A DNA stretch of 53,499 nucleotides from a virus (Duplodnaviria > Heunggongvirae > Uroviricota > Caudoviricetes): IMG/VR virus record IMGVR_UViG_3300042691_036629, positions 1 through 53,499 of that record; one strand, 5' to 3'. Numbering within the stretch: position 1 is the stretch's first letter; every line of letters begins with the position of its first letter. A model generated the notes under the pieces. That model was given only the letters and a program-made list of their open reading frames with translations. It was not told the origin of the DNA and did not search any database. Below are positions 10,191-15,286 of the stretch, piece after piece. A program made the translations under genes and the position numbers.

Positions 10191-10937
10191 ATGAGAGATT
10201 TTTTTTTACAGAAATTAGAGTGCTTTAAAGATCCGGATTTTATATTTGACCCAGGTCTACACAAATATACCTATCATGGTGATGTATTTCAATCTGTTAC
10301 ACAATTCTTAGGTGAGTTTCACCTTCCATTTGACACCGAAGAGAAATCAAAAAAGAAAGCAGATGATACTGGTTTTGATCAAGAATGGATTAAAGCTGAG
10401 TGGAAAGAAACAAATAGGTATGCTAACGAAGTAGGAACTGCTACTCACGAATGGATTGAGAATTATTACAATAAGATTTGGCAACCACTTCCAGAAAATC
10501 CAGACATTATACATCGTATAAATAAATTCAATAAGATTTTTTGTAAACAACTCCACAAACTTGATGAAGTTAAGTTTGAGATAAAAGTCTTTTCTAAAAA
10601 ATGGAAAAAGGCTGGTACGATAGATGCTCTTTTCATGAAAGATGGTAAGTTATACATACTTGATTGGAAGACGAATAAGAAATTTACGGATGATGATCAT
10701 AAGGATGGTAAGTGGCAGAAGTTATTATGGCCCTTCCAGGACTTCTATAAAAATCATCATAATGAATATTCTATTCAGTTATCTATGTATGCTTGTATTT
10801 TGGAAGAGTGGGGTTTTGAGGTTGCTGGAGCTTACTTAGTTTATATCAGTCCTGGTGAGGAAGAAGCGAGGTTGATTAAATGTAAAGACATGAGAAAATA
10901 TATTAAACAATATTTTGATAGTGTTAATAAATATTAA
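10191..10937 (+). CDS. PD-(D/E)XK superfamily nuclease (RecB/Cas4-like exonuclease)
   Basis: GTATHEWIE, AGTIDAL...ILDWKT, YSIQLSMY motifs. Confidence 0.85.
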   Translation: MRDFFLQKLECFKDPDFIFDPGLHKYTYHGDVFQSVTQFLGEFHLPFDTEEKSKKKADDTGFDQEWIKAEWKETNRYANEVGTATHEWIENYYNKIWQPLPENPDIIHRINKFNKIFCKQLHKLDEVKFEIKVFSKKWKKAGTIDALFMKDGKLYILDWKTNKKFTDDDHKDGKWQKLLWPFQDFYKNHHNEYSIQLSMYACILEEWGFEVAGAYLVYISPGEEEARLIKCKDMRKYIKQYFDSVNKY

Positions 10938-10989: not shown

Positions 10990-11979
10990 ATGAAAATAAA
11001 AAATAATATGCAATCAGAAAAAACCATACAATTCTTAAAAAAATTAAAAGAGAGTGGTAATTGGAATGATAATTATGATTACTCTGAAGTTAATTATATT
11101 TCAAACAGAGATAAAATAATTATAATTGATCAATATAATATAAAACATCTAATAACACCTTCAAATATACTTAAAGGTACTAATCTAAATATAACAAATT
11201 CATTAGATAAAAATCTATATCTGAAAAATAAATTTCAAGAAATACATAAGAATAAATATGATTACTCCAAAATTAATTACGTTAACAACGAGACTCTTGT
11301 TGAAATAATATGTCCTGAACATGGTGTTTTTGAGCAAACACCCAATACACACACTAGTGGAAGCGGTTGTCCAAAGTGTGGAATTATTAGAAATGGAGAT
11401 AGTAAAAGAAAAAATATTAATGATTTCATAAAAGAGTCAAATGTTTCTCATAACAATAAATATGATTACTCACTAGTGAAATATAAAAACTCAACAACTA
11501 AAGTTAAAATAATATGTCCGGAACATGGAGAATTTGAGCAAACTCCAAGTAAACATATAAATGGACAAGGTTGTGTTAGATGTTCTAAGATAAACAATAT
11601 TGAAGATTTTATAAAAAAATCAAATGATATACACCGTGGTAAATATAATTATTCACTTGTAGAATATAAAAACTCAACAACTAAAGTTAAAATAATATGT
11701 CCTGAACATGGTGAGTTTGAGCAGTCACCAAATACACATCATAATGGAGGTGGTTGTATTAAATGTTATGGTAATCAAAATACCACAATTGAAGAATTCA
11801 TTTCAAGGTCCAATAAAATACATCAAAGTAAATATAATTATTCTAAATCAGAATATAAAAATTCACACACAAAATTAACAATAATATGTCCAGAACATGG
11901 TGAGTTTGATTTGCTAGGAAATTGCCCCTCAATCACCAGCAAATCATTTAAGTGGGAAAGGATGTTATATATGCAATAA
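10990..11979 (+). CDS. Zn-ribbon repeat region (DUF723-like); 5' part of a frameshifted helicase-methyltransferase gene
   Basis: One degenerate plus four YxYSxxxY...ICPEHGxFxQxPxxHxxGxGCxxC repeats; the last repeat is completed only in the +1 frame from 11930. Confidence 0.8.
   Translation: MKIKNNMQSEKTIQFLKKLKESGNWNDNYDYSEVNYISNRDKIIIIDQYNIKHLITPSNILKGTNLNITNSLDKNLYLKNKFQEIHKNKYDYSKINYVNNETLVEIICPEHGVFEQTPNTHTSGSGCPKCGIIRNGDSKRKNINDFIKESNVSHNNKYDYSLVKYKNSTTKVKIICPEHGEFEQTPSKHINGQGCVRCSKINNIEDFIKKSNDIHRGKYNYSLVEYKNSTTKVKIICPEHGEFEQSPNTHHNGGGCIKCYGNQNTTIEEFISRSNKIHQSKYNYSKSEYKNSHTKLTIICPEHGEFDLLGNCPSITSKSFKWERMLYMQ
11480..11702 (+). repeat. 40-bp identical direct repeat, 183-bp period, inside the Zn-ribbon repeats
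   Basis: aatataaaaactcaacaactaaagttaaaataatatgtcc at 11480-11519 and 11663-11702. Confidence 0.85.
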
Positions 11980-12043
11980 GGGATATACTAATAAATTAAA
12001 ATTAAATTTATTAAATACGTTAAGTGAGTCAGATCTATTATCA

Positions 12044-14560
12044 ATGGAACCATTTGAATTATTTATTATTATTGGTCAAGGTAAACTACCAGATGATTTT
12101 AAATCAATTGCAAATACCGATGCTAACTCGGAAGAAAGACTTCTATCCATAAAAGAATTGAAAATGGAACTTGAAAGAGAAATTGAATTAGAAGATAATA
12201 ACCTAGTGGAAGTTGTAAATGAAAAATCTACAAATGATAATAATTCTCTTTTAACAAATGAAATCAATCAAATCGATGATATTGATGATGATATAATGAA
12301 TTCTAAAAATGAAGATAAAAAATTACCATCAATGGTTGGTATGAATGATTTTCACACACTAGATAATGATTACTATGCAAGAATGGATGAAGAAGCATTC
12401 AACTCATTAATTAATTTTAAAACTCAAAGAATGTGGAATGGAGTTTTGAATAAAATTTTAAATGTTGATGATATTAAAAATGAGAGTGGTGGGAAATATT
12501 TTACTATAATAAAAAATAACTTTATAAATGAGTATAATGATGTTATTAAAATTAAAGTACCCAATGATTATAAAAATCACACACCCAATTTAATGCAAAA
12601 ATTAACAATTCATAGACTATTAACATCAGATTCAAAATCTTTACTAAATCTATCCGGTACAGGAGCTGGTAAAACAATAGCTATGATTTTAGCTAGTAGA
12701 ATTATAAATTCTAAAATAAGTATTATAATTGCATTAAACTCAACAGTTGAACAAATATCAAATGAGATAGTAAAATCTTTTCCTAATAGTTTAGTATTTA
12801 CTGAACATGAGATCGGACGAGTTTATGATGTTAATGAACATAATTATTTAGTTTTAAATTATGAAAAATTTCAACAATCATATTCAGAAGAAGTTTATCA
12901 AGATTTGACAAATAAAAATATTATAGACTTTGTTGGTATTGATGAATTACAGAATGTTAAACAAAGAGGTGAAGATGAATCAGTAAGAAGAGGCGTTTTG
13001 AAGAAATTAATTGGTCGTGTTAGAGATAAAAATAAAAACTCATACATTTTAGGTATGTCAGCAACACCAGTTATAAATAATTTGAGTGAAGCTAAGTCTC
13101 TATTGGAGATTGTTACTTTAAAAGATTATAGTGACTTAAATACACATAAAAGTATATCAAATGCACTTAGAGTATATCAACAATTTTTATTAAATGGAAT
13201 TAGATATCTACCACAGTATGAGATTGAATTAGATAAAAAGTATATCGAAATTGATGGTTCTGACTTAATCGATGATATATTAAAACTACCAAAGAATGAT
13301 TTTATCTCGTTAGAAAAATTACTCTTACCAAAGAAATTAGAATCCGTTAGAGAATTTCTAAAAAAAGGAGTATGTATTTATACATACTATGTTGACGGAT
13401 TTAAGAACGAAATATATGATTTTGTGACAAAAAATGGATTTACTTGTGTTTGTTGCACTGGTGAAGAAAATGGAATTATAAATATAGATGGTGTTGAAAT
13501 GTCTATAAGAGAGTATAACTTAAAAAAGTTTATAAAAGGTGAAGTTGATATTATTATTGGTTCAAAACCAATAACAACCGGTGTTGATGGATTGCAAAAT
13601 GTTTGCAATACCTTGATAGAAATCACACAACCTTGGACAAACTCAGATGAAAAACAGTTACATGGTAGATTTATTAGACAAGGATCATCTTTTGATAAGG
13701 TAACTGTTATAATACCACAAGTTAAAATTGATATAGATGATAAAGTTTGGTCATGGGATAAACAGAGAACAAATTTAATAGAAAATAAAAGAACTTTAGC
13801 TGATTTAGCAGTTGATGGTAAAATACCTTCAAAAATATTACCAAGTAGAGAAACTATGTTCAATAAGTCTATTGAATCATTACAATCATGGAAAGACAGA
13901 GTTAACAAAGGTGATATAATTAATGGTGATAGAAGAAACATAAATATTAATTTATATCCAGAATTGGATGAAGAGAAAAGATTAATAAAAATTGAATCAG
14001 AATTATCTGAATTTAATAGAAGAGGGAAAATAACTCGTTCATCTACAATGAATAAAGAATTCAACAACAATCCAGATTCTTGGTTTAGATATCATTCTCT
14101 TAGAAGAGAAAGTATGAAAGATTGGACTGAGATACCATATGAGTATATTGCTACTAAAATTAAAAACAAAAATCATCGTGTTGTTGATTTTGGATGTGGT
14201 GAAAATTTATTCAAAAATTTTATACCAAATAATGAGGTAATATCATTTGATCATATAGCAATAGATGATAATGTTATTGCATGTGATATGAGTGATGTTA
14301 GTGAATATTTGAGTGATGAAAGTGTTGATGTTTGTGTTTTTAGTTTATCACTATGGGGTACAAATTATAAAGATTATATTAAAGAAGCTTATCGTGTTTT
14401 AAACTGGAATGGTAATATTTATATAGCAGAACCATCTAAAAATTATGAAACACAAGAGGATGAAAAGGAATTAATAGACTTAATAAAAGAATTTGGATTT
14501 GAAATTGTTGGTGGTATCGAAAAGAGAAGTAAGTTTATTTACATAAGAGGTATAAAATAA
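12044..14560 (+). CDS. SF2 helicase fused to an Rrp8/nucleomethylin-like SAM methyltransferase
   Basis: Walker A SGTGAGKT, motif II IDELQ, motif III SATP, motif VI QLHGRFIRQG; C-terminal NPDSWFRYH..., VVDFGCGE, SFDH, IACDM, DESVDVCVFSLSLWGTNY, EAYRVL...IYIAE. Frame is open back to 11930. Confidence 0.85.
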   Translation: MEPFELFIIIGQGKLPDDFKSIANTDANSEERLLSIKELKMELEREIELEDNNLVEVVNEKSTNDNNSLLTNEINQIDDIDDDIMNSKNEDKKLPSMVGMNDFHTLDNDYYARMDEEAFNSLINFKTQRMWNGVLNKILNVDDIKNESGGKYFTIIKNNFINEYNDVIKIKVPNDYKNHTPNLMQKLTIHRLLTSDSKSLLNLSGTGAGKTIAMILASRIINSKISIIIALNSTVEQISNEIVKSFPNSLVFTEHEIGRVYDVNEHNYLVLNYEKFQQSYSEEVYQDLTNKNIIDFVGIDELQNVKQRGEDESVRRGVLKKLIGRVRDKNKNSYILGMSATPVINNLSEAKSLLEIVTLKDYSDLNTHKSISNALRVYQQFLLNGIRYLPQYEIELDKKYIEIDGSDLIDDILKLPKNDFISLEKLLLPKKLESVREFLKKGVCIYTYYVDGFKNEIYDFVTKNGFTCVCCTGEENGIINIDGVEMSIREYNLKKFIKGEVDIIIGSKPITTGVDGLQNVCNTLIEITQPWTNSDEKQLHGRFIRQGSSFDKVTVIIPQVKIDIDDKVWSWDKQRTNLIENKRTLADLAVDGKIPSKILPSRETMFNKSIESLQSWKDRVNKGDIINGDRRNININLYPELDEEKRLIKIESELSEFNRRGKITRSSTMNKEFNNNPDSWFRYHSLRRESMKDWTEIPYEYIATKIKNKNHRVVDFGCGENLFKNFIPNNEVISFDHIAIDDNVIACDMSDVSEYLSDESVDVCVFSLSLWGTNYKDYIKEAYRVLNWNGNIYIAEPSKNYETQEDEKELIDLIKEFGFEIVGGIEKRSKFIYIRGIK

Positions 14561-14566
14561 AAAATT

Positions 14567-15286
14567 ATGAAAAAACAATATGTTTACATTGGTCAGTTCT
14601 ACCATATAAAAAATAAAGAACTACCACTTGATTATAAGTTTGGAGTTACTGATGATCTAGAACAAAGAGAATATTCGTTAGGTCGTACAAAATCACCTAT
14701 AAAGTATATGATTTTAAAAGCTTGGGAATTACCATTAAACGTCAAAAGAGAAAAGGTTGAAAAGATGATTGCCTTAATTTTTGATGAAAATAAGTATGAT
14801 GGTTGTGAGTGGTATGATGTTGATGGTGAAACTTTTCAAGGTAAAATAAAGGAGTTATTTGAAATAATATCAGATATGATTGATGACCTCAATTTCACTT
14901 TTGTTGAAGTAGATTTAGATAAAAATAGTGACGGTGATATTGTTGAAAAAGAAATTGAAAAAGAAATAAGAACTGGTAAAAAAGCACCTTGGACAAATTT
15001 GGAGGTTAATATAGAAGGTAACCTAATAAAACTTGATAGTGCTAAATCAACATATGGTAAATCAATTGAAGAAATTTTAAAAACTATTGATCCTGTACAG
15101 TTCTCTATTGATTTCCCAAGAATATTTAAATTGAATAAAAGTGATTATCCTGAGTATAAATGGTCTTCTCTTCTCAAAATTGGAGATTTTTATTTAGATA
15201 CATATACAAACACGGCTCAAAAGAAAAGAGATATTTGTAACGCTCTTACTAAATATAATATTAAAGGTGAAGTTCAAATTTATTAA
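14567..15286 (+). CDS. T5orf172/MUG113-type GIY-YIG nuclease-domain protein
   Basis: YVYIG...YKFGVT.DLEQR..SL..TKSP...VEKMI...EWY pattern; 6 bp after the helicase-MTase stop. Confidence 0.7.
   Translation: MKKQYVYIGQFYHIKNKELPLDYKFGVTDDLEQREYSLGRTKSPIKYMILKAWELPLNVKREKVEKMIALIFDENKYDGCEWYDVDGETFQGKIKELFEIISDMIDDLNFTFVEVDLDKNSDGDIVEKEIEKEIRTGKKAPWTNLEVNIEGNLIKLDSAKSTYGKSIEEILKTIDPVQFSIDFPRIFKLNKSDYPEYKWSSLLKIGDFYLDTYTNTAQKKRDICNALTKYNIKGEVQIY

Follow-up and report, generated by a model that had tools for sequence, protein, structure and literature searches.

Two adjacent open reading frames (ORFs) that in relatives form one would best be explained by a genuine 19-bp insertion, or a small complex rearrangement, that hit an accessory gene of a jumbo phage in its fourth zinc-ribbon repeat. 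With a probability of about 70%, we regard this as an ordinary, probably recent and lineage-specific insertion that split a dispensable gene. In relatives, the gene is one ORF of ~1,100-1,300 aa, in which a zinc-ribbon repeat array is followed by the SF2 helicase and the Rrp8-like methyltransferase. For annotation, this reading would make 10990-11979 and 12044-14560 the halves of one disrupted gene, and not two genes or a recoding site.

The window analysed comprises the first 53.5 kb (53,499 nucleotides) of a linear IMG/VR virus record of 171,766 bp. The record is metagenome-derived, has a GC content of 27.7% and a completeness estimate of 62%. The features that concern the split are as follows.

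10990..11979, + strand: upstream ORF, 329 aa, from ATG 10990
11911..11929, + strand: insert TTGCTAGGAAATTGCCCCT, 19 bp, 47% GC, single copy in the genome
11915..11917, + strand: TAG in the +1 frame, within the insert
11926..11929, + strand: candidate slip site CCC_T, at which re-pairing in the +1 frame is possible
11930..12043, + strand: start-less stretch of 38 codons in frame 2, comprising the remainder of repeat 4 and the conserved linker (QSPANHLSGKGCYICNKGYTNKLKLNLLNTLSESDLLS)
12044..14560, + strand: downstream ORF, 838 aa, SF2 helicase (ResIII/DEAD/Helicase_C) with a C-terminal Methyltransf_8 domain (Rrp8-like)

Reading frames and domains of the split gene

The 329-aa and 838-aa ORFs both lie on the + strand and differ by one frame. 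From ATG 10990, frame 1 runs through CPEHGEFD into LLGNCP and SITSKSFKWERMLYMQ and stops at 11977-11979, standard decoding predicting the peptide GEFDLLGNCPSITSK for the 329-aa product. The TAG at 11915-11917 in frame 2 is followed by EIAP QSPANHLSGKGCYIC, and this frame then stays open via ATG 12044 to 14560; frame 3 is closed. Because of the TAG, any +1 shift is confined to 11918-11976. The 42 codons of frame 2 leading to ATG 12044 (11918-12043) contain no stop codon and no ATG, GTG or TTG, and a start-less leader of this length ranks in the top ~5% genome-wide. When the whole genome was checked for long start-less leaders as a marker of further split genes, no pattern emerged. Judged by its sequence, the 38-codon stretch at 11930-12043 is homologous to the fused proteins of the family and would go untranslated unless the frame changes. 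The ATG at 12044 corresponds to an internal methionine that is conserved in the family (LL.MDPFEL). At the other end of the gene, the true start of the upstream ORF is probably ATG 11008, since homologs begin with MQSEKTI and not with MKIKNNMQSEK, as translated from ATG 10990.

The upstream ORF contains an N-terminal module, three intact zinc-ribbon repeats and the first knuckle of a fourth repeat, after which come six residues from the insert (LLGNCP) and, out of frame, a tail of 16 residues. The three complete units are ~63 aa each and end with CPEHG.FEQ.P..H..G.GC..C. They match the Pfam families DUF4379 ('treble clef zinc finger', 2.5e-11), DUF723 (1.6e-8) and CapR, and in PHROGs the same repeats are found in DNA-binding arrays of phage endonucleases. 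For the downstream ORF, Pfam matches were obtained with ResIII (5e-8), DEAD (3e-7), Helicase_C and, most strongly, Methyltransf_8 (3e-32).

The 19-bp insert

The insert sits inside the fourth zinc-ribbon repeat and changes the frame by +1. As a T is present on either flank, it can equally be placed at 11910-11928. In silico deletion of the 19 bases results in CPEHGEFDQSPANHLSGKGCYIC, a canonical fourth unit, colinear both with the three preceding repeats and with the repeat that ends the array in every homolog compared, and in one ORF of 1183 aa. With a GC content of 47% versus 26% for the gene, the insert belongs to the top 3.3% of the gene's 19-mers, a real but modest difference. The initial annotation, which had read a GC-richer 19-bp insert at exactly 11911-11929 and had stated that its removal restores a perfect repeat and a single ORF, was accurate on all these points.

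Relatives carry the gene unsplit and without the insert

A search of 5.8 billion proteins yielded 608 relatives. Apart from the gene's own 838-aa product, the closest ones are 1167-1292 aa long, show 69-72% identity in the core and combine repeats, helicase and methyltransferase in one chain. The 75 residues preceding IIGQGKLP were inspected in 120 listed proteins among the 608, and four close relatives were inspected in full. A zinc repeat is present there in ~85 of the 120 listed proteins, with constant knuckle spacing and a last repeat of fixed length (C..HG.F.Q.P..H..G.GC..C), and not one of these ~85 homologs has extra residues at the position of LLGNCP.

At the DNA level, 57 related loci from IMG/VR and from JGI/ENA metagenomes were compared. 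The repeat array lies directly 5' of the core in ~21 of them, in the same frame in every case, and the insert is absent from all ~21. The insert-free homologs that had been proposed as a check are thus available as ~85 proteins and ~21 DNA loci, all of them fused. The insert is therefore specific to this lineage, the closest fused relatives being only 70-72% identical. No near-identical insert-free genome able to date the event was found. A variable-gap junction pattern run against viral and metagenome contigs likewise gave no match to an insert-free or independent copy, a search from which the record itself and near-identical records may be excluded.

One relative on a short metagenome contig (L061:1491-2247) changes from frame 3 to frame 1 within the acidic linker, at core residues 86-114. 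This may be a second break or a sequencing error, at a site that differs from, and lies downstream of, the insert position.

An accessory gene of modular composition

The domain order of the family (DUF723/DUF4379 repeats, helicase motifs, Methyltransf_8) is present in the window, in a frame that is split at 11911-11929. The fused zinc-repeat/SF2 helicase/Methyltransf_8 proteins of large phages (e.g., P0003-P0010) have the same order and both halves align with them end-to-end (70-72% identity for the core), whereas the copy studied here is broken by the 19-bp insert. The fusion family as a whole has only a weak match (E 4e-6) in PHROGs, between its helicase C-terminal region and the DarB-like antirestriction family phrog_10089.

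Across phages, the N-terminal module that accompanies the core takes at least three unrelated forms (proteins P0048, P0053 and P0029) or is missing. The modules observed are zinc-ribbon repeats, WTLE.CK.DALKY repeats and a W-rich module with the pattern 'P.NP...Y...GW..W.DFLG', a variety that suggests an exchangeable targeting domain at the N-terminus. Natural relatives lacking zinc repeats are 858-879 aa long. Since relatives exist without repeats or with unrelated N-terminal modules, the repeat array can be considered an exchangeable, dispensable module. The natural short forms nevertheless retain a linker helix (K.KL.LLN.L..SDLL) that is absent from the 838-aa ORF, which misses the ~22 linker residues that they keep; without this helix, the 838-aa product may be impaired.

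A separate observation concerns the other end of the protein. On one IMG/VR contig (L003:4001-4348), only the C-terminal 116 residues of the methyltransferase are matched (71% identity) and no helicase precedes them; this may represent a recombinant or a free-standing Methyltransf_8 fragment.

Consequences of the insertion

Owing to the +1 shift, ribosomes that decode in the standard way meet a stop 16 codons after the insert, and their product is a repeat protein of 329 aa that ends in junk residues. The helicase-methyltransferase would then require fresh initiation at the internal methionine at 12044 or would not be made, and a product initiated there would lack the last half-repeat and the ~22 conserved linker residues. 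The event is probably recent, as the 38 stranded codons are still open and family-like. It was presumably tolerated because the gene is dispensable, the N-terminal module being swapped or absent in many natural relatives. A recent disruptive insertion, which the initial annotation had offered as one of three options, therefore gives the best fit: the listed relatives are fused and insert-free, and the 38 out-of-frame codons still resemble the family.

What is seen here agrees with a disrupted gene, namely a lineage-specific 19-bp indel that is not a multiple of three, followed 16 codons later by a stop codon (11977-79). With ordinary frameshift-split phage accessory genes, it shares the non-triplet indel, the early stop, a downstream ORF starting at an internal methionine and the restriction to one lineage. 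In contrast to such genes, the insert is neither a duplication of neighbouring sequence nor the result of a homopolymer slip; it is zinc-knuckle-like in frame and takes part in an inverted repeat.

Alternative explanations

Recoding of any kind is unlikely, including a programmed or compensatory +1 frameshift. According to the frameshift model, tRNA-Pro on CCC (11926-28) re-pairs with CCU (11927-29), so that CAA (11930) is read next and some ribosomes yield a 1189-aa fusion (313 + 876 aa), with six extra residues in repeat 4, beside the 329-aa product. This geometry, first laid out in the initial annotation, is borne out by the DNA, and the predicted junction peptide is GEFDLLGNCPQSPANHLSGK. 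UGC_CCC_UCA is the only plausible shift site within 11918-11976, and the move from CCC to CCU preserves tRNA-Pro pairing in the P site. CCC is the rarest Pro codon (28 of 970, or 2.9%; 0.73 per 1000 codons). Frame 2 is open and conserved throughout the unusually long start-less leader at 11918-12043, and the intact state of the 38 stranded codons fits ongoing frameshift translation equally well as recent mutation. A read-through product would also make biological sense, because the 838-aa ORF is without the ~22 linker residues kept by the short forms. Listeria phage PSA, whose host is similarly low in GC and seldom uses CCC, provides a precedent, as its tsh and cps genes shift by +1 at CCC_UGA and ACA_CCC_UCC, respectively, and 'corrective' or compensatory frameshifting across problem indels is a recognised class (PMC5009743).

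Most of the remaining features of the site argue against this model. In the A site, UCA is neither a stop nor a hungry codon but the Ser codon used most (24.9 per 1000). In-frame CCC_T is found 10 times in other long ORFs (10/28, 36% of CCC) and hence is not avoided. The 82 nt 3' of the site fold at -6.2 kcal/mol (z +0.44), no better than shuffled sequences, the sole local hairpin already starts upstream of the site with its 5' arm (z -0.22), and no Rfam match was obtained. Shine-Dalgarno-like stimulators of the prfB type are spaced at 3 nt, whereas the AGGA here lies 6 nt upstream; moreover, Shine-Dalgarno pairing is reportedly little used in the likely host group. The arrangement is found in none of the ~85 listed proteins and none of the ~21 loci, and the fusion would place six foreign residues in a zinc knuckle whose length is invariant among homologs. 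Like the +1 sites of Listeria phages PSA, A118 and A500, the site studied here combines a P-site CCC followed by U, low GC and rare CCC in a phage gene (PMC5009743). In the Listeria phages, on the other hand, a stop codon or a 3' pseudoknot comes after the shift site, which sits at the 3' end of a structural gene and recurs in related phages (PMC5009743), in contrast to an abundant next codon, no structure after the site, a non-structural gene and absence from relatives in the present case. The programmed frameshift as originally put forward is not supported: its basis is the CCC_U tetranucleotide, which has an abundant A-site codon next to it and neither stimulator nor conservation.

Low-level adventitious slipping at CCC_U may occur. 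It is quite unlikely, however, that the insert acts through such slipping as a 'savior' or dosage-reducing indel, in which a rare CCC followed by U permits a low level of +1 slip. We consider it just as doubtful that the gene then gives rise to mostly free zinc-repeat protein, little full-length fusion and perhaps a truncated core from 12044, although, if true, this would mean three products where relatives make one. Should CCC_U rescue some product, the site would add a small natural case of compensatory frameshifting, in a phage that infects AT-rich hosts, and no new mechanism.

With regard to decoding, ARAGORN predicted an 82-nt, Leu-like tRNA with the 4-base anticodon 'taag' outside the window, at genome positions 134795-134876. 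When introns were allowed, the same stretch was read as a tRNA-Ile(tat) with a 10-nt intron, its anticodon stem containing G-U and U-U pairs. As a quadruplet-decoding tRNA this candidate was rejected: the anticodon stem is poor, and the codon that it would read, CUUA, does not occur in the shift window.

An assembly or sequencing artefact, in which the 19 bases are absent from the phage DNA and the gene truly is one ORF of 1183 aa, is very unlikely, and the insert is probably real. The artefact had been listed as an option initially, and it would suit a record that is an incomplete (62%), metagenome-derived linear contig, a perfect ORF that returns upon removal of the insert and near-identical DNA repeats in the gene, which can confuse assemblers. 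Against it, 9 contigs from three sources (NCBI, JGI/IMG and ENA) encode exactly the 329-aa product, the final 22 residues of which exist only with the insert, and 8 contigs, including Logan's independent assemblies, encode exactly the 838-aa product, bearing in mind that some of these 8-9 contigs may be the same assembly deposited in several databases. Furthermore, since the 19-mer is unique and not part of a repeat, it does not derive from mis-joined repeats and must come from the reads.

Hopping of ribosomes over the insert (translational bypass), or loss of the 19 nt from the RNA by other means, with the exact ancestral protein as the outcome, is extremely unlikely. Hopping is known from T4 gene 60 and from the mitochondrial byp elements of Magnusiomyces. 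Byp elements are short and exceed their AT-rich surroundings in GC content (PMC5009743), as the insert does relative to its AT-rich gene, and the insert is contained in the local hairpin. The triplets 19 nt apart that would have to serve as take-off and landing sites are, however, mismatched (GAT/CCT, TTT/GCC and GAG/ATT), no frame-1 stop precedes 11977, and the hairpin folds no better than shuffled sequences (z -0.22). It is also the sole insert of its kind that was seen, with nothing similar elsewhere in the genome; it is far below the size of a self-splicing intron and has no Rfam match.

Two genes flank the split gene.

10191-10937: PD-(D/E)XK/Cas4-like nuclease
14567-15286: T5orf172/MUG113 protein

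The earlier suggestion that the insertion silences a toxic system is unsupported, because neither neighbour was found beside the gene in the 57 related loci and the helicase-methyltransferase gave no PADLOC match, on which grounds a conserved nuclease/helicase-methyltransferase/T5orf172 'system' was rejected.

Origin of the inserted bases

A search for the 19-mer elsewhere, as had been recommended, revealed its one copy in the 171,766-bp phage record and no donor in IMG/VR or in the 57 loci. Within the record, no stretch of the insert of 10 nt or longer recurs, and the 57 related loci gave no relevant match at up to 4 errors. The single IMG/VR match (L004) falls in a tail-fibre-like gene, unrelated to this one, of a phage with a higher GC content, and was taken as a chance match.

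The gene's own repeats were considered as a source at two levels. Gapped DNA alignment of the insert to these repeats scored no better than that of shuffled inserts (p 0.38). At the protein level, the in-frame reading L-L-G-N-C-P can be set beside the second-knuckle consensus H-L-x-G-x-G-C-P-x-C derived from 386 family repeats, and in one relative the second knuckle reads LLGNKC. Among shuffled inserts, a fraction of 5e-4 yields the pattern G.{1,2}CP, and L.G.{1,2}CP is found at 2 of 343,528 six-frame positions genome-wide, one of which is the insert; both tests were post hoc. The insert thus resembles a scrap of the gene's zinc repeat, a likeness confined to the protein motif.

A second feature is an inverted repeat that involves one edge of the insert.

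11907..11946: inverted repeat, perfect over 9 bp, with arms TGATTTGCT (11907-11915) and AGCAAATCA (11938-11946)

The left arm, TGATTTGCT, spans the 5' junction of the insert, consisting of the junction and the first five inserted bases, and its reverse complement, AGCAAATCA, follows without mismatch 22 nt downstream. Beyond these arms the pairing is imperfect, and CCCCT is left in the loop. An inverted repeat as good as this one was seen in 0.7-2.6% of trials with shuffled or random inserts (p of about 0.007-0.026), a modest and post hoc result. It would fit a template-switch mutation. Quasipalindrome or template-switch mutations are a known class that creates longer inverted repeats with nearby sequence. 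As in that class, the new sequence lengthens an inverted repeat, here with 9 perfect base pairs and an imperfect extension. Unlike a typical member, however, only part of the insert can be accounted for in this way: 11 of its first 14 bases fit the inverted downstream copy, and the last five (CCCCT) do not, and the statistical support is modest (p 0.007-0.05). With either feature, the event looks like illegitimate recombination or a replication error in a gene rich in repeats; the inserted bases themselves would most likely have come from such recombination, or from template switching, within the repeat array or close to it.
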